A stretch of DNA of 64,000 nucleotides from Gaiellales bacterium (GTDB taxonomy: Bacteria > Actinomycetota > Thermoleophilia > Gaiellales > Gaiellaceae). Under the pieces are notes generated by a model. It was not told the origin of the DNA. It made no database searches and saw only the letters and a program-made list of their open reading frames with translations. Position 1 is the stretch's first letter, and the number at the start of each line of letters is the position of its first letter. The position numbers were made by a program, and so were the translations under genes. The stretch covers positions 9,568 to 73,567 of the forward strand of contig JBBSHO010000002.1 in the NCBI GenBank assembly GCA_038253005.1, given 5' to 3'. Below are positions 2,050 through 49,853 of the stretch, piece by piece.

Positions 2050-3261
2050 ATGCCCTTCTACCAGCGACTCGGCGAGGTCCCCCGCAAGCGGCATACGCAA
2101 TTCCGCGAGAACGGCGCCCTCCTGACCGAGGAGGTGCTCGGGCTCGAAGGCTTCTCCGGCAACGAGTCGATCCTCTACCACCTCCAGTCGCCGTGCCGGA
2201 TCAAGGAGCTCGGCGACTTCGAGCCGATCGAGCGCGACGAGTGGGTGCCCGACGCGCACGCGCACCGGCACTTCAAGACGATGGGCATGGACGCCGGCGG
2301 AGACCCGATCACGGGCCGGCGCCTCCTGATGTGGAACAACGACGTCGAGATCTCGCTCTGCCGCCCCGACGAGGCGATGGAGTACTTCTTCCGGAACGGC
2401 GAGGGCGACGAGGTGATCTTCGTGCACGAGGGCTCGGGGACGCTGGAGACCACGTTCGGCGATCTCCACTACGACCAGGGCGACTACGTCGTCGTCCCGC
2501 GCGGGACGACCTACCGGTTCCGGCCGGAGGGCGAGCAGCGCCACCTCGTCTTCGAGACACCCGGGTTGATCACGATCCCGAAGCGCTACCGCAACGAGCA
2601 CGGCCAGCTGATGGAGCACGCGCCGTACTACCACCGGGACATCCATCCGCCGACCGAGCTGCACACACACCCCGATCGCGGCGAGCACGAGGTGAAGGTG
2701 CGCGTGCGCGACGGCTACCAGACCTACGTCCTCGACTATCACCCCTTCGATGTCGTCGGCTGGGACGGCTACGTCTACCCCTGGACGTTCTCGATCCACG
2801 ACTTCGAGCCGATCACCGGGCGCATCCACATGCCGCCGCCCTCGCACCAGACCTTCGCGGGGCCGAGCTTCGTGATCTGCTCGTTCTGCCCGCGCAAGCT
2901 CGACTTCGATCCCGAGGCGATCCCGATCCCGTACCACCACTCGAATCTCCAGTCGGAGGAGATGATCTATTACGTCTCGGGCAACTTCGGCTCGCGCAAG
3001 GGGATCGAGGTCGGCTCGGTGACGCTCCACCCCTCGGGTCTGCCGCACGGGCCGCACCCGGGCCTCGCGGAGAAGTCGATCGGGATGACGGAGACGCACG
3101 AGCTCGCGGTCATGTGCGACACGTTCAATCCGCTGAAGCTCTCGAGCTGGGCGAAGAGCCTCGACGACGGCAAGTACGCCTATTCCTGGTACGAGGAGCC
3201 GTCCGACAACGGCGCCCGCGACGCCGACCAGGATCCGGCCGGCGTCACCTCGCATTTCTAG
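2050..3261 (+). CDS. hmgA: homogentisate 1,2-dioxygenase
   Basis: The 403-aa ORF has a family-typical N-terminus (YQRLGEVPRKRHTQF) and cupin core. An FAH-family gene is adjacent. Confidence 0.85.
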   Translation: MPFYQRLGEVPRKRHTQFRENGALLTEEVLGLEGFSGNESILYHLQSPCRIKELGDFEPIERDEWVPDAHAHRHFKTMGMDAGGDPITGRRLLMWNNDVEISLCRPDEAMEYFFRNGEGDEVIFVHEGSGTLETTFGDLHYDQGDYVVVPRGTTYRFRPEGEQRHLVFETPGLITIPKRYRNEHGQLMEHAPYYHRDIHPPTELHTHPDRGEHEVKVRVRDGYQTYVLDYHPFDVVGWDGYVYPWTFSIHDFEPITGRIHMPPPSHQTFAGPSFVICSFCPRKLDFDPEAIPIPYHHSNLQSEEMIYYVSGNFGSRKGIEVGSVTLHPSGLPHGPHPGLAEKSIGMTETHELAVMCDTFNPLKLSSWAKSLDDGKYAYSWYEEPSDNGARDADQDPAGVTSHF

Positions 3262-3873
3262 GTGCGACTCGTTCTGGACTGGGACGGGACGGTCTCCGAG
3301 GAGGACACCGGCTGGATGGTGCTCGAGCGATTCGGCGACCGAGAGGTGTTCATGCAGGCCGAGGGCCAGCTCGGCCCCGGCAAGCTGACGCTCAAGCAGG
3401 TGATGGAGCTCGAGTTCTCGAGCGTCCGCGCGCCGCTCGAGGAGGTGCGCGACTGGCTCGTCGAGGAGGTGCGGATCCGACCGGGGTTCTGCGAGCTCGC
3501 CGAACGCCACCGGCCGGTGATCCTCTCCAGCGGCTTTACGGAGCTGATCGAGCCCGTGCTCGCCCGCGAGGGGCTCGAGCTCGAGGTGCGCGCGAACAGC
3601 GTCGAAGCGGCGCCCGACGGCTGGCAGGTGCGCTGGCGCGACGAGGCGCAATGCGTGGAGTGCGGCGAGGCGTGCAAGCGCGGCTCGCTGCCGGACGGCG
3701 AGGTCGTGTACGTCGGCGACGGCTACTCCGACCGGTGCGCGGCGCTCTCCGCGGGCCGGGTTTTCGCGCGCGACGGTTTGGCCGACTACCTGGAGGAACG
3801 GGGCCTGCCGTTCGAGCCGTTCGAGGACTTCGTCGAGCTGGCGGCCGCCGTCGAGCCGCCCAGCCGGAGCTGA
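3262..3873 (+). CDS. HAD superfamily subfamily IB phosphatase (MtnX/PSP-like)
   Basis: Motif I DWDGT lies at residues 6-10 and motif IV GDGYSD near the C-terminus. The GTG start follows directly after the hmgA TAG. Confidence 0.75.
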   Translation: MRLVLDWDGTVSEEDTGWMVLERFGDREVFMQAEGQLGPGKLTLKQVMELEFSSVRAPLEEVRDWLVEEVRIRPGFCELAERHRPVILSSGFTELIEPVLAREGLELEVRANSVEAAPDGWQVRWRDEAQCVECGEACKRGSLPDGEVVYVGDGYSDRCAALSAGRVFARDGLADYLEERGLPFEPFEDFVELAAAVEPPSRS

Positions 3874-44329: not shown

Positions 44330-46259
44330 AGATCGAGAGCAGGCGCAGGCCGACCTTCCTCTCCCCGTCCTGCACGAGCCGCGGGAGATCGACGGTGACG
44401 ACGTGCCAGCCTCGGCGGCCGAGATGGAGGCCCGGCCGCTCGTCGACCGTGAACCTCGCGCCCCGGAGCGGCGAGGGCTCGAAGCGCAGGCGGAGCGCGC
44501 CTGCCCCGTAGATCCAGAAGGGCGCGTGCTCCTCGCTCATGAAGCGTCCCGAGGTCGGCGAGACCTGGCCGTACCAGCCCTGGCAGAAGACGGGCTCGCC
44601 GTGCGGCGGCTCCGGCAGGGCAGGCGGGCGTCCCCCCTGCGAACGCCCGAAGAGCCAAACCGGCGCAGCGGTCGCCGTGACCGACCAGCCGTGGGCGGCG
44701 AGGCCGCGCCGGGCGAAATAGGAGCGGTCGGGGACGGCGGAGTTCCGGTCGAAGAGGCCGAGGTGGAGCGCGATCGAGCCGACGCCCATGCGCTCGAGCA
44801 GGCCGGCCGTGCCGCCACTCCAGTCCCCGCAGTTCAACCGCTCGAGCCGCCGCGCGGTCGCCTTCGCGGCGAGCGGCGCGGTGGTCGAGTAGCCGCCGGG
44901 CCGCTGCCGCTGCGCGGCTGTGTCGTACCAGAGGTAGACGCTGCCGTAATGGACGTCGGGATCGAACACGGGCAGCTCGAGGAGCCGGCCGCGCGTCGCG
45001 GCGGCGAGCGCGGCGGGATCGCCCGTCGCCGATCTCCCGTAGATCCGCACGTGCAGGTCGAGCAAGAGCAGGAGCAGCACGAGCGCGACGACGACGTTTC
45101 GCCGGCTGCGCGCGACGGCCACCGCGACGAGGCCCGCGAGCGACAGGCAGGCGATCGGGAGCAGGCGCTCGGGCACGCGCGGGAACCGGAACGGCGGCAG
45201 CGCGTGGAAGAGCGGTGAGTACGTGGGGAGGGTCGTCCCGAGCGCGAGCAGGACGGGAACGAGAGCGCCGACCCCGAGGGCGACCGCGAGGCCGATCCGG
45301 CGCGAGCGCACGAGCACGACGAGGCCGGCGAGCGCCAGCAACGGCGTCGCCCAGCCCAGGTAGACGAACTGCTCGCTGCGCGCGTGGTCGACGTGCCGCC
45401 CGAGGAAGTCGCTCCAGTGGGCCGAGTACAGCCTGACCTCGGCGAGCGTGCGCCCGCCGGCCTGGGTCGAGCCCTTGATCACCGCCTCGCGGACGAGGAT
45501 CCCGGCCCCGACCGCGGCGAGGACGCCGCCGCCGACTCCCGCCAGGAGCCTCGGAGCGCGTGTCCGGCAGGCAGCGTAGAGGACGAAGAACGGAATCGCG
45601 CCGAGCGCGAGGTGCACCTGACCCGAGAGCGGGATCGACGCCAGCGCCCCTGCGGCGAGGACGAGCCAGAACGTGCGCCCGCGCCGCGCCCGCTCGAACG
45701 CCCACAGCGCGAGCGGAAGCAGCACCGAGACCGGCCCGAGCAGGTGCCCGACGCTCTGCTCCACGCGATAGGGGGCCAGCGCGAAGGCGAGGCCGCCGGC
45801 GAGCGCAGGACCGCGGGGGAGGTCGAGCTCTCGCAGCCACGCGCATGCGAGCACGCCGGCCAGGACGTAGAGGACGAGCTGGAGCACGTTCCAGCCGACG
45901 ACGAGGCCGAAGGCCGCCGAGAGCGGCCAGTAGAGGAAGCCGAACGGCCAACCGGGGAAGTTGGGCTGCGGCGCGGACTCGGGGCGGAAGCTGTACGGAT
46001 CCCGCCAGGGCGCCCGCCCGTGGTCGAGCTGGTGGCCGACGAGCCAGAGGTGGTACAGGGTCTGGAGGTGGTCGCCCGGCGAGGCTTCGCCGTGGGCCGG
46101 CGCGCCGCCCGAGAGGAAGTGCGAGCGCGCCTGCGAGATCGCCGGCCAGGTCGCGGTGACGCCGGCCGCGAGGTAGAGCGCGAGTGCGAGAGCTAGAAAG
46201 CCTGCGCGGCCGCGAGCAGCTCGTCGAAGTCCGGCAGCTCGGCGGTGTCGTAGCGCCAT
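44277..46259 (-). CDS. polytopic membrane protein of unknown function with C-terminal extracytoplasmic domain
   Basis: The 660-aa ORF has about 12 hydrophobic segments. Its 5' end overlaps the peroxiredoxin 3' end by 67 nt, and its 3' end overlaps fabI convergently by 53 nt. Confidence 0.6.
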   Translation of the reverse strand: MALRHRRAAGLRRAARGRAGFLALALALYLAAGVTATWPAISQARSHFLSGGAPAHGEASPGDHLQTLYHLWLVGHQLDHGRAPWRDPYSFRPESAPQPNFPGWPFGFLYWPLSAAFGLVVGWNVLQLVLYVLAGVLACAWLRELDLPRGPALAGGLAFALAPYRVEQSVGHLLGPVSVLLPLALWAFERARRGRTFWLVLAAGALASIPLSGQVHLALGAIPFFVLYAACRTRAPRLLAGVGGGVLAAVGAGILVREAVIKGSTQAGGRTLAEVRLYSAHWSDFLGRHVDHARSEQFVYLGWATPLLALAGLVVLVRSRRIGLAVALGVGALVPVLLALGTTLPTYSPLFHALPPFRFPRVPERLLPIACLSLAGLVAVAVARSRRNVVVALVLLLLLLDLHVRIYGRSATGDPAALAAATRGRLLELPVFDPDVHYGSVYLWYDTAAQRQRPGGYSTTAPLAAKATARRLERLNCGDWSGGTAGLLERMGVGSIALHLGLFDRNSAVPDRSYFARRGLAAHGWSVTATAAPVWLFGRSQGGRPPALPEPPHGEPVFCQGWYGQVSPTSGRFMSEEHAPFWIYGAGALRLRFEPSPLRGARFTVDERPGLHLGRRGWHVVTVDLPRLVQDGERKVGLRLLSISTSPSRGSRSRRTGPSP

Positions 46260-46651
46260 GCGCGGAGCACCGTACCGTCCTCGCCGACGAGGAACGCGCT
46301 GCGCTCGGCGACGCCCGTGAGGCCGCGGAAGTCCTGCTCGACGCCGAAGGCACGGATCGCCTCGCCGTTCCAGTCGGAGAGCAGGGGGAAGTTCAGATCG
46401 AGGATCTGGGCCCAGGCGACGTGCGTCCAGGGTGAGTCGCGCGAGATCCCGAAGGGGTGGACGCGGGCCTGCTCGAACTCGAGGCTCCTGTCACGCAGGA
46501 GCTCCATCTCGTTCGTTCAGGTGGCGGACCAGTCGAAGAGGTAGAAGAGGAAGAGCACGCGGCCGCCGGCGACGAGCTCTGCGATCGTCCGCCGCTCGCT
46601 CGGGGCCGTCCAGACGGACGCCTCCGGAACCCGATCGCCCGCCTGGAGCAC
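46193..46651 (-). CDS. AhpE/Bcp-like 1-Cys-type peroxiredoxin with in-frame TGA (46517..46519) at the peroxidatic position: candidate selenoprotein
   Basis: Translation from GTG 46651 gives ...GRVLFLFYLFDWSAT-[TGA]-TNEMELLRD..., 152 aa in total. An in-frame TAG lies directly upstream of the GTG, and TAGGGT lies 6 nt upstream. A SECIS-like hairpin is downstream. Confidence 0.65.
46481..46504 (-). promoter_or_regulatory. SECIS-like stem-loop GAGCUCCUG-CGUGA-CAGGAGCCUC, starting 12 nt after the UGA
   Basis: It has 9 bp with one bulged C and a 5-nt loop with G at position 2. The UGA-to-loop distance is 21 nt. Confidence 0.5.
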
Positions 46652-46775
46652 CGCGCCACCCTATCGGGTCACCGTGGCCCCGTCCCTAGCCCCCACCCGC
46701 CCACGGGGTCACCTGAGGGTACGGCGTTCGGGCGTACGCGTCTGTGCCGATTCCGCGCCGAGAGTGTGACTCGCC

Positions 46776-47411
46776 TCACCGGCGGCGGATCCGGACGTGG
46801 ACGTGATTGTCGTGGCCTGCGAGGACCTGGACGATGCGGCGTGGGCCGGTCCGGGCGGTGTTCGGGCCGACGAAGACGAGCTGCGCGCCGGCGCGGACGA
46901 AGCGGTCGACGAGGTCCTGCGCGAGCCGGTGGTCGATCTGCGAGGCGCGGTCGGGCGGCCGCTCTCGACGGTCGCGCCGCGGGTAGTAGACGTCCACGTC
47001 GAGGCCGTTCTGGTGCGAGACGTGGCTCGGCCGGCCGAAGCGGATCCCGAAGTCGCCTCCGTGCGGACGGCTGAGGTCTCCGATCCCGACCCGCGGCGCG
47101 CCCGGGTGAGCCCTGGCGAATCCGTTCACGACACGCAGCACGATCCGCACGAGGCGGTCGCTGCCGAAGCGCCGCCAGGCGCGATCCGGCCGGCGCCGGA
47201 GGATCGGATCCCAGGTGAAGTAGCGGCGCCCCGCCGGCGCGAGCTGGACGCCCGCGACGAGCCTCCCGTTCCACGGTCGGCCGAGCGAGGTCGAATGCCG
47301 CCAGTGGATCTGCGGCTGGGCCGGCGCCGTCGCGAGCGCCGCGGCGGAGACCAGGACAGCTACCGTGGGAAACAGCATCGGTCGCGGTTTACGTGCGGGA
47401 CCGATCCGCAA
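46776..47411 (-). CDS. MepA-like penicillin-insensitive murein endopeptidase (LAS metallopeptidase)
   Basis: Motifs SHQNGLDVDV and HDNHVHVR are present with a signal-like N-terminus. The start is TTG 47411 or ATG 47378. Confidence 0.7.
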   Translation of the reverse strand: MRIGPARKPRPMLFPTVAVLVSAAALATAPAQPQIHWRHSTSLGRPWNGRLVAGVQLAPAGRRYFTWDPILRRRPDRAWRRFGSDRLVRIVLRVVNGFARAHPGAPRVGIGDLSRPHGGDFGIRFGRPSHVSHQNGLDVDVYYPRRDRRERPPDRASQIDHRLAQDLVDRFVRAGAQLVFVGPNTARTGPRRIVQVLAGHDNHVHVRIRRR

Positions 47412-47689: not shown

Positions 47690-48895
47690 TTAGGCGAGGA
47701 CGGAGGCGGGCGCCTCGGTCGCGTCCGCGATCTCGCGCACGACCTCCACGATGTCGCGGTTGGCGTTGAAGATCCGCAGCTGGCGGTCCGAGCCGTTCCC
47801 GCGCCGCAGGATCTCCATGATCCCCTCGAGCTCCCGCTCGGACCCGAGCTCACGCGCGTGGGGCCCGATCTCCTTCAGCGTCCGGCGGATGAGCTGCGCC
47901 ACGGGCACGCGGTTCCGCCGACCGGTGGCGAGGTCCATCGCCGGCGCCTCGAGCCCGTAGCGCGCGGCGAGCCACTTGTTCTCGGTGGTGAGGATCCGGT
48001 GGTACGACGGGATCTGCTCGCCCCGCTCGAAGCGCTCGCAGTAGTGCTTGACGAGCGCCTGGCAGTAAGCGGTCAGCGCGACCACGTCCTCGAGCCGCGT
48101 CGTCGCGTCGCAGATCCGGATCTCGATCGTCCCGAGCCGCGGATGCAGGCGGATGTCCCACCAGATGTGCGTGTAGTCCGCGATGCAGCCCGTCTTCTCG
48201 AGCTGGCCGACGACCTCCGCGTAGTCGCCGTAGTTCTCGAATCGCGGCGGGGGGCCGGAGCGGGGGAAGGCCGCGAAGATCATTTGCCGCGAGGACGAGA
48301 GCCCCGTCGGCTCGCCGCGCCAGAACGGGGAGCTGGCCGAGAGGGCGAGCAGCTGGCCGAGGTGCAGGAGCAGCCCGTTCACGACCTGGATCGCCTTCTC
48401 CGCGTCGTCGACCGCGACGTGGATGTGCATCCCGAAGATCAGCTCCCGCCGGGCGACGTACTGGAGCTGGTCGACGAGGTTCCGGTAGCGGTCGCGGGCC
48501 GTGATCCGCTGGCGCTCGAACAGGCTGAACGGATGGGTGCCGGACGAGCCGACGCGCAGGCTCTGGCCGCGCGCGACCTCGCAGACGTACGCGCGGATCT
48601 TCCGCAGCTGCTCCTCGATGTCGGACGCCGTATGGCAGACGGGCGTCGCGATCTCCAGCACCGACTGCATCAGCTCGGCGTTGATCCGCGGCTCGAGCTC
48701 GTGCCCCGCGACCGCCTCGAGCACCGTGTCGATGTGCTGAACGAGGTCGAAGGTCTCGCCGTCGAGCAGCATGTACTCCTCCTCGACCCCGAGCGTGTAC
48801 GGGTCGCTCTGGCCGAAGCGGTGGTCGAGCACGCTGCCGCCTGTCGCGAAGCCTGCGGCCTTGCCCGTGATCGAGGCCGGATAGATCTGTTTCAT
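47690..48895 (-). CDS. carboxylate-amine ligase, glutamate--cysteine ligase family 2 (YbdK-like)
   Basis: TLGVEEEYMLLD, GTHPF, IFGMHIHV and WWDIRLHP are present. The internal ATG 48895 of track ORF 47690..49327 was used. Confidence 0.8.
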   Translation of the reverse strand: MKQIYPASITGKAAGFATGGSVLDHRFGQSDPYTLGVEEEYMLLDGETFDLVQHIDTVLEAVAGHELEPRINAELMQSVLEIATPVCHTASDIEEQLRKIRAYVCEVARGQSLRVGSSGTHPFSLFERQRITARDRYRNLVDQLQYVARRELIFGMHIHVAVDDAEKAIQVVNGLLLHLGQLLALSASSPFWRGEPTGLSSSRQMIFAAFPRSGPPPRFENYGDYAEVVGQLEKTGCIADYTHIWWDIRLHPRLGTIEIRICDATTRLEDVVALTAYCQALVKHYCERFERGEQIPSYHRILTTENKWLAARYGLEAPAMDLATGRRNRVPVAQLIRRTLKEIGPHARELGSERELEGIMEILRRGNGSDRQLRIFNANRDIVEVVREIADATEAPASVLA

Positions 48896-49034
48896 CGCGG
48901 CGTGTCCGGGAGTATCGCGTCCGCCTCGATCTCCACGAGCCAGCGCGGGAACCGCGCGGCAGTAGCCGACCTGGAGCTCCAGCGGGTGGCCGGAACCGAT
49001 TCGGCGCGGCGCCACGCCTCTAGTATCGCGCCGC

Positions 49035-49853
49035 GTGGACGCGCTGACGCAGATCGACGGCTGGCCCGCGCCCCATGCCGCCGCCGCGGTCGTCGCCGCG
49101 GGCACGATCGTGGCGGTGCGAGGTCCGCGCGACCGGGTGTTCCGCTGGGCATCGGTGACGAAGCTCGTCACGGCGCTCGCGGCGCTCGTCGCGGCGGAGG
49201 AGGGGATCGTCGGCCTCGACGAGCCGGCGGGACCGGAGGGCTCGACCGTCCGCCACCTCCTGGCCCACGCGTCCGGGCTCCCGTTCGACCGCGGCGGTCC
49301 GATCTCGCGGCCGGGGCGGCGCCGCATCTACTCGAACGTCGGCTTCGAGACCCTCGCAGAGCACGTCGGCCGCGCGGCCGAGATGCCGTTTGCCGAGTAC
49401 CTGCAGGCCGGCGTGCTGCGGCCGCTGGCGATCGCCGCCGAGCTGCGCGGGTCTCCGGCGTCCGAGCTGCACGGCACGCTCGACGATCTGGCCGGGCTGG
49501 CGCGGGAGCTCCAGCGGCCGACGCTCGTCGCCCCCGAGACGCTCGCGGAGGCGACGAGCGTGCAGTTCCCCGGCCTCGACGGCGTCCTGCCCGACCTCGG
49601 CCGGTTCACGCCGAACGACTGGGGCCTCGGCTTCGAGCTCCGCGACGCTAAGACGCCTCACTGGACCGGCTTGCGCAACTCCGCGCGGACGTTCGGCCAC
49701 TTCGGCGGCAGTGGCGCGTTTCTCTGGGTCGACCCGGACGCGGGCCTCGCGCTCGCGTGCCTGACCGACCTCGACTTCGGCGACTGGGCCAAGCAGGCGT
49801 GGCCGCGACTATCCGACACGGTTCTAGCGGAGGATGCCGGTGTGACCGAGTGA
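49035..49853 (+). CDS. serine hydrolase (beta-lactamase class C-like family)
   Basis: It has SxxK (SVTK). TAGTAT lies 8 nt upstream of GTG 49035. Confidence 0.7.
   Translation: MDALTQIDGWPAPHAAAAVVAAGTIVAVRGPRDRVFRWASVTKLVTALAALVAAEEGIVGLDEPAGPEGSTVRHLLAHASGLPFDRGGPISRPGRRRIYSNVGFETLAEHVGRAAEMPFAEYLQAGVLRPLAIAAELRGSPASELHGTLDDLAGLARELQRPTLVAPETLAEATSVQFPGLDGVLPDLGRFTPNDWGLGFELRDAKTPHWTGLRNSARTFGHFGGSGAFLWVDPDAGLALACLTDLDFGDWAKQAWPRLSDTVLAEDAGVTE

Follow-up and report, generated by a model that had tools for sequence, protein, structure and literature searches.

An in-frame UGA at the catalytic position of a peroxiredoxin gene in Gaiellaceae: a probable selenocysteine codon followed by a SECIS-like hairpin

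The DNA analysed here is a stretch of 64,000 nucleotides (nt) from a Gaiellales bacterium (contig JBBSHO010000002.1), the whole of which is called the window below. On its minus strand lies a peroxiredoxin (Prx) reading frame of 152 codons that is interrupted once by UGA, and an open reading frame (ORF) lister cuts this frame into two ORFs of 44 and 104 amino acids (aa). The question raised by this locus is whether the UGA is the end of a broken or divided gene, or a codon for selenocysteine (Sec). The reading supported by this analysis, with a probability of roughly 0.9, is that the frame encodes one intact 152-residue 1-Sec peroxiredoxin, whose catalytic residue is Sec encoded by UGA. The mechanism itself is already known; the clade to which the gene belongs is a lineage-specific Sec-peroxiredoxin of Gaiellaceae/Thermoleophilia that is missed by current annotation.

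The reading frame and its active site

First of all, the minus-strand frame contains 44 sense codons ending in ...FYLFDWSAT, then TGA, then 107 sense codons and a terminal TAG (coordinates in Table 1). The initial annotation had placed a GTG start, an in-frame TGA and an upstream TAG closing the frame at this locus, and had described a product without any Cys; reading and translating the minus strand found all three elements at the positions given, and the translation, VLQAGDRV...FDWSAT-(UGA)-TNEMELLRDR...AAAQAF, has zero Cys residues. In more than 130 relatives, the N-terminus (M/V-L-x-x-G-D), the frame and the length are kept, and the start at the equivalent aligned position is ATG or GTG.

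When the stop is read as C, the product matches the Pfam family AhpC-TSA (PF00578) with E=2.5e-22 and 79.6 bits (cutoff 26), and residues 5-128 are aligned with positions 2-121 of the 124 in the profile. The best match among solved structures is Aeropyrum pernix Bcp (2cx3; E=6.6e-20), an archaeal enzyme of the BCP/PrxQ type, and the enzymes of this type (2cx3/2cx4; Sulfolobus 2ywn and 3hjp) are collinear with the window protein over ~150 residues at E=6.6e-20 to 2e-16. Alignment to solved peroxiredoxins puts the UGA exactly on their peroxidatic Cys, as had been proposed: ...FDWSAT[U]TNE... of the window stands against ...AAFSPVCTKE... of 2cx3. The catalytic Arg is also conserved, AERSAFLV being aligned with AKRAVFIV of 2cx3. 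That is to say, both the T/S-x-x-C(U) motif and the catalytic Arg that characterise peroxiredoxins are present. The S/T-x-x-C(U) active site, the LLSD motif and the catalytic Arg are common to BCP/PrxQ and to the window protein, but the BCP/PrxQ enzymes use Cys, and the resolving Cys that A. pernix Bcp carries five residues further on is missing in the window protein.

The initial annotation had called the protein AhpE-like, a label that turns out to be loose. The window protein is indeed collinear with Mycobacterium tuberculosis AhpE (Rv2238c; 1xxu, 1xvw), with query residues 3-138 against chain residues 3-137, and resembles it in size, in the 1-Cys mechanism and in actinobacterial origin; however, AhpE uses Cys in a canonical P-x-x-x-T-x-x-C motif, and its match (1xxu, E=2.6e-11) ranks under those of the archaeal Bcp enzymes, so that the nearest solved relatives are of the BCP/PrxQ type. 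Membership of AhpE was rejected on this weaker match. Some annotations of the Joint Genome Institute (JGI) name relatives of the gene 'mycoredoxin-dependent peroxiredoxin'. Membership of PrxU was likewise rejected, the score on the PrxU model (NCBIfam NF040737) being 32.1 bits where 270 are required. The equivalog models of BCP/PrxQ were not reached either (NF006960, 55.4 against 140 bits; NF053650, 50.9 against 260 bits).

The UGA and the hairpin among relatives

Besides full-length homologues (~152-160 aa), the protein search found dozens of clusters, at 76-85% identity, that are exactly 104 aa long, a truncation shared by many separate assemblies. The DNA of the relatives came from 2 NCBI contigs of metagenome-assembled genomes (MAGs), 56 species-representative genomes and 80 metagenome contigs, the 56 genomes all being Gaiellaceae, Gaiellales, Thermoleophilia or unclassified actinobacterial MAGs. 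At the aligned codon, TGA was found in 136/136 Sec-type instances (133 distinct), including all 58 that are genome-derived, and TAA or TAG was never found. The initial annotation had suggested comparing TGA with Cys codons among orthologues, and the exact codon is either TGA or TGC, in 133 distinct sequences versus 6. The protein identity of the TGA forms to the window is ~50-85%, and their N-terminal 44 codons stay in frame. Moreover, the ratio of nonsynonymous to synonymous substitution rates (dN/dS; Nei-Gojobori, 1,500 random pairs) is ~0.48 for the stretch before the UGA (36 codons) and ~0.44 for the one after it (85 codons). Since the two values are similar, the N-terminal part that is discarded by annotation is as constrained as the part that is kept.

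These results bear directly on one explanation of the locus, namely a pseudogene produced by a nonsense mutation, or an error of sequencing or assembly, of which a lone in-frame stop in an intact gene is the usual signature. The same TGA is shared across several sequencing projects and across assemblies that are independent of one another, purifying selection acts on both halves, there are no frameshifts or additional stops, and the codon is not exchanged for another stop. Decay of the flanks in relatives with the same stop, which had been named as the mark of a pseudogene, was looked for and none was seen. The chance that the gene is dead or misread is accordingly rated as practically nil. 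As a separate observation, two loci with TGA and hairpin, L058 (~3040-3105; OY970333.1, a complete 2.7-Mb chromosome) and L042 (~3350-3450), have, further on, an apparent 1-nt indel that disrupts the frame; the tblastn match of L058 comprises residues 32-146 only, and the translation of L042 enters out-of-frame sequence. Either a genuine pseudogene or an indel error of long-read sequencing could account for this.

Public annotation takes a different view of the gene. GenBank and JGI list a 104-aa 'redoxin domain-containing protein', at times together with a 44-aa ORF, and the recurrence of these fragments supports the earlier proposal that a selenoprotein gene has been split by ORF calling. 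Taken literally, these annotations mean that two polypeptides of 44 aa and 104 aa, or the 104-aa fragment alone, are the real products, and the first codon of the 104-aa ORF, codon +4, is indeed ATG in 79/132 sequences. Nevertheless, ~35% of members have there CTG, CTC or some other triplet that is not a start codon, and the fragment would wholly lack the catalytic residue. The two pieces are always in frame with one TGA between them and are collinear with single-chain Cys orthologues, and the invariant hairpin described below is not explained by any requirement for a ribosome-binding site. Separate products are therefore held to be highly improbable, only slightly less so than a dead gene, and the pseudogene, sequencing-error and split-gene readings are all effectively excluded. 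Two JGI proteins listed as 'full-length' (P0001 and P0003) have W at the UGA site (...DWSATWTHE...), the caller having read TGA as Trp; here the selenoprotein is concealed otherwise than by truncation.

The second element of the gene is a hairpin in the coding region, which begins 14 nt past the UGA, with a spacing of 21 nt from the UGA to the loop, and sits within the codons for E-L-L-R-D-R-S. Its core has a minimum free energy (MFE) of -10.8 kcal/mol; the fold z-score in the window is -2.45. The published criteria for the bacterial selenocysteine insertion sequence (bSECIS) comprise a loop of 3-9 nt, a stem of 4-16 bp, a spacing of 16-37 nt, an MFE <= -7.5 kcal/mol, and G at loop position 1-2 with G/U as the next base (PMC13188914). 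With a loop of 5 nt, a stem of 6-7 bp, G at loop position 2 followed by U/G, and the spacing and energy just given, the hairpin falls within every one of these limits, in agreement with the bacterial SECIS geometry first assigned to it. Hairpins of this kind also follow other TGA triplets: among the 944 TGA triplets of the window (71% GC), 5.7% precede a bSECIS-compatible hairpin and 1.5% an equally stable one, so that a hairpin in a single sequence is weak evidence.

The comparison of relatives is more informative. The inner six pairs, CUCCUG/CAGGAG, form in 57/57 aligned sequences, the sole changes being from U-A to U-G, and the seventh pair (G-C) is present in 49/57. The loop is CG[U/G]GA in 130/133 sequences. 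The structure originally described, a 9-bp stem with one bulged C, a 5-nt loop with G at position 2 and a 21-nt spacing, does fold in the window, but only its inner 6-7 bp are conserved; the outer 2-3 pairs, and also the long lower helix of the window MFE fold, are unconserved in relatives. The extended MFE structure was discarded, as covariation tests showed its lower stems to be unconserved and shuffled sequences scored equally well, and only the core of 6-7 bp was retained because the longer structure failed these tests.

The 19-nt sequence GCUCCUG-CG[U/G]GA-CAGGAGC is nearly invariant, synonymous sites included, across proteins that are only ~50% identical. From codon +6 to codon +11, the codons are CTC (58/58), CTG (58/58), CGT (50) or CGG (8), GAC (58/58), AGG (57/57) and AGC (45/46), whereas 4-6 codons are used at the remaining invariant Leu, Arg and Ser positions of the gene. 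The Arg codons CGT and AGG of the hairpin are rare in a genome with 93% G+C at third codon positions (GC3). In addition, the Thr that precedes the UGA is encoded by ACC in 56/56 sequences, and the context ACC-UGA-ACG is almost invariant. The pairing even survives substitutions that change the residue, such as AGG to GGG (Arg to Gly) and AGC to AGA (Ser to Arg). This suppression of synonymous change is the evidence of selection at the level of the RNA.

The Cys orthologues serve as a control. Six distinct TGC forms were found (L060, L068, L089, L156, L158 and L159), with the motif DWSxTCTNE and in synteny, either immediately downstream of the gene of a GCS2-family ligase or near it. They keep the residues E-L-L-R-D-R with a free choice of codons: Leu-Leu is CTT CTC, CTG CTG, CTC CTC or CTG TTG, the first Arg is CGC in 5/6, and the second Arg is AGG, CGG or AGA. 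The canonical hairpin is absent in 5/6 of them; four fold at just -1.6 to -3.9 kcal/mol over the equivalent 19 nt, and L158 has only a shifted, different hairpin of -8.7 kcal/mol. The remaining one, L068, keeps the full 7-bp stem, but its loop, CGCGA, breaks the G[G/U] rule. Because the TGC forms lose or alter the hairpin, its conservation is tied to the UGA and not to the protein sequence. The expected dependence of the hairpin on the codon is thus borne out, the element being kept with TGA and decayed or loop-altered in all six TGC forms. Beside this control, it was observed that the Cys-type loci L068-L073 and L076 (P0013) keep the stem with the loop CGCGA, and that their nearest neighbour in the tree, L079, is a TGA form; the P0013 type would seem to have exchanged Sec for Cys very recently, leaving a 'fossil' SECIS.

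The direction of change was examined with a neighbour-joining tree, rooted with two archaeal Bcp sequences, and Fitch parsimony, by which the clade's ancestor is reconstructed as Sec and the Cys forms as derived in at least two places. Since the tree has no support values, it can only tentatively be proposed that Sec was ancestral and that Cys arose by later replacement. In the 2006 survey, Sec-to-Cys replacement was not recorded for Prx (PMC1794560, Table 1). The paired Sec and Cys orthologues are a natural experiment on the constraint acting on SECIS and on Sec-to-Cys replacement.

Stop codons and the machinery for selenocysteine

Since UGA is also a stop codon, its use in the rest of the DNA has to be considered. 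Among 41 candidate ORFs of the window chosen by GC3, the stops are TAG in 20, TGA in 18 and TAA in 3, and the TGA at 46519 is the sole TGA in the 64 kb with a strong coding signal on both sides. A scan for further in-frame TGAs with a two-sided coding signal, which took in the window, the sel loci and 429 kb of Prx loci, found none. A genome-wide reassignment of TGA was rejected, since TGA otherwise behaves as a normal stop in the window and the case at 46519 stands alone. The frequency of TAG is in itself striking for a genome of 71% GC, where TGA normally dominates.

The genes for Sec synthesis and insertion were approached stepwise, from E. coli SelB to a sel locus of Embleya, from there to the SelA of Embleya and then to that of Streptomyces. 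The Streptomyces SelA was searched against representatives at 50% identity, and these were compared with the SelA of Rubrobacter xylanophilus (PMC1794560 supplement). The resulting SelA tree was poorly resolved, and P0263 was picked by its joint similarity to the Rubrobacter and Streptomyces SelA and by its amino-acid composition; a profile of the best candidate SelA clade was then used to retrieve further SelA proteins. Four of these, P0466, P0488, P0508 and P0509, are named 'Gaiellaceae bacterium', the sole organism names among the profile matches. The Gaiellaceae-type sel contigs have 69-73% GC (four measured). On them, selA overlaps selB, the SelB carries the domains GTP_EFTU, Beta-barrel_SelB and WHD_3rd_SelB, and a tRNA with the anticodon UCA lies just downstream of selA-selB in 8 loci; it is recognised as tRNA-Sec (selC) by Rfam RF01852 with 67.4 bits (gathering score 47). 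Because these loci of selA-selB and tRNA-Sec were found, in MAGs bearing the name Gaiellaceae and in contigs related to them, the family Gaiellaceae has a Sec-insertion system. The order BioY-(VanW)-selA-selB-one ORF-tRNA(Sec) is conserved in L162, L164, L166-L171, L175 and L176, and in L166-L171 the tRNA-Sec is followed by a helix-turn-helix regulator and Proton_antipo_M/NADHdh genes (complex-I-, Mrp- or group-4-hydrogenase-like).

It is at this point that the most serious competitor has to be weighed, namely that the UGA is read through without Sec, a near-cognate or suppressor tRNA inserting Trp, Cys, Gly or Arg while the hairpin acts as a generic stimulator. Hairpins in general are able to stimulate read-through, some gene callers do render the codon as W (P0001 and P0003), and the window and the Prx loci themselves are without Sec machinery. 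However, the codon takes the place of the catalytic Cys, where only Sec or Cys would yield an active peroxidase, and the loop follows the SelB-specific G[G/U] rule, which is lost precisely in a Cys orthologue. The normal use of TGA as the stop of 18 window ORFs and the presence of selA, selB and tRNA-Sec in Gaiellaceae also count against it. Read-through of this kind is judged to have only a small chance of being right, though a larger one than the split-gene reading.

Several results weigh against Sec insertion at this locus. First, the conserved Pro at -7 of the peroxiredoxin motif P-x-x-x-T-x-x-C is lacking: codon -7 (window 46538-46540) is Leu in the window and in 51/58 Sec-type genes, it is Val/Ile in a divergent clade of Sec forms, and Pro is confined to some of the Cys-type relatives (P0022, P0063). 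Second, covariation in the stem is minimal, with compensatory change limited to one U-A to C-G in one sequence among 133, and formal pair statistics are uninformative for it; covariation is near-absent because the stem scarcely varies. Third, with E. coli SelA, SelB and SelD as queries, tblastn gave no match in the window or the Prx loci, and selD was not seen in the sel loci examined, nor near the Gaiellaceae-type sel cluster. Finally, the sel-bearing assemblies (DATBEQ, JBDTRS, CAYJLE and DASXRO) lie outside the Prx-bearing MAGs that were compared, the two having been seen in one family but in different assemblies. As to tRNA genes, none was detected in the 64-kb window by tRNA and Rfam scans or in 58 Prx loci by a tRNA scan.

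With these points set against the evidence of the codon and the hairpin, a Sec-encoded active site is still the preferred reading, and the following course of events is proposed. During translation, the UGA at 46519..46517 would be bypassed as a stop, and the coding-region hairpin GCUCCUG-CGUGA-CAGGAGC would serve as a bacterial SECIS, to which SelB would bind and so bring Sec-tRNA(Sec) to the UGA. In the folded protein, the S-x-x-U pocket would hold a selenolate that, acting with the conserved Arg, would be expected to reduce peroxide, and the selenenic acid formed would be recycled by an external reductant, which would be needed because a protein without Cys has no resolving Cys.

Relation to known systems and gene neighbourhood

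Peroxiredoxins are an established family of bacterial selenoproteins with a T/SxxU motif (PMC1794560, PMC5029168, PMC13188914); the number of Sec-Prx was 12 in the 2006 survey (PMC1794560), and 91 in 78 organisms in the 2016 survey. The experimentally studied prototype is PrxU of Eubacterium/Peptoclostridium acidaminophilum. Like Sec-Prx and PrxU, the window protein has the AhpC/TSA fold and a T/S-x-x-U motif in which the proposed Sec replaces the peroxidatic Cys, and its in-frame UGA is followed by a coding-region SECIS hairpin. Unlike PrxU, which is a longer Prx1/AhpC-type protein of an anaerobic Firmicute, it is a 152-aa BCP/PrxQ-like protein of high-GC soil Thermoleophilia, with Ser at -3 and Leu for Pro at -7. 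As for the hairpin, it agrees with the bacterial SECIS consensus (the bSECISearch model; E. coli fdhF/fdnG) in lying in the ORF past the UGA and in having a small loop with G followed by U/G, and it differs from the E. coli elements in being unrelated in sequence, unusually invariant and without a bulged U. A literature search for Gaiellales or Thermoleophilia with selenocysteine found nothing relevant.

The Sec form is dominant across Gaiellaceae/Thermoleophilia (133 distinct against 6), which are among the commonest soil actinobacteria, and therefore a requirement for selenium in peroxide defence is implied in them; the lifestyle of Gaiellaceae is presumably aerobic and in soil. Because the gene is annotated as a 104-aa fragment, as a 44+104-aa pair or as a Trp protein, it is systematically missed in hundreds of MAGs and metagenomes. 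A more speculative and rather doubtful idea, though one given more credence than read-through without Sec, is that Prx, and not FdhA/SelD, is perhaps the main selenoprotein sustaining Sec decoding in Gaiellaceae, and that the TGC alleles are recent reversions tracking selenium-poor habitats or the loss of sel genes. If this were true, the Sec/Cys state would be a genomic marker of selenium availability in soil, and the near-invariant lineage-specific SECIS could be used to mine the selenoproteome of Thermoleophilia.

Table 1. Features of the proposed selenoprotein gene and its neighbours in the window
Feature	Position	Strand	Description and basis
Complete selenoprotein coding sequence (proposed)	46193..46651	-	152 codons, UGA = Sec at codon 45; frame translation
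Start codon GTG	46649..46651	-	Weak Shine-Dalgarno-like GGGTGG 6 nt upstream
Upstream in-frame TAG closing the frame	46661..46663	-	Sequence reading
In-frame UGA, proposed Sec codon	46517..46519	-	Motif D-W-S-A-T-U-T (S-x-x-U)
True stop TAG	46193..46195	-	Sequence reading, translation
Conserved SECIS core, 7-bp stem GCUCCUG/CAGGAGC	46484..46502	-	Fold and conservation in relatives
5-nt loop CGUGA	46491-46495	-	Within SECIS core
Window-specific hairpin extension GAGCUCCUG-CGUGA-CAGGAGCCUC	46481..46504	-	9 bp, one bulged C; fold
M74-like murein endopeptidase ORF between GCS2 and Prx	46779..47411	-	PF03411, E=9.1e-14
GCS2-family glutamate-cysteine ligase	47693..49327	-	PF04107, E=8.6e-57; ORF boundaries, true start probably further in

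In loci of the Sec type and of the Cys type alike, the GCS2 ligase gene is the conserved upstream neighbour of Prx, often at a distance of 9-14 nt; the loci in which this synteny was followed are L001, L003, L060-L073 and L156-L160. This neighbour hints that a thiol derived from gamma-glutamylcysteine could be the reductant of the peroxiredoxin. A scan for promoters and terminators gave no sites. With regard to the sel locus of Embleya through which the search for SelA passed (L161; NZ_CP108785.1, Embleya sp. NBC_00888), it contains a complete selD-selA-selB cluster, and the record is a linear one of 5.7 Mb with 8 annotated features, which is listed as a 'plasmid' in PLSDB.

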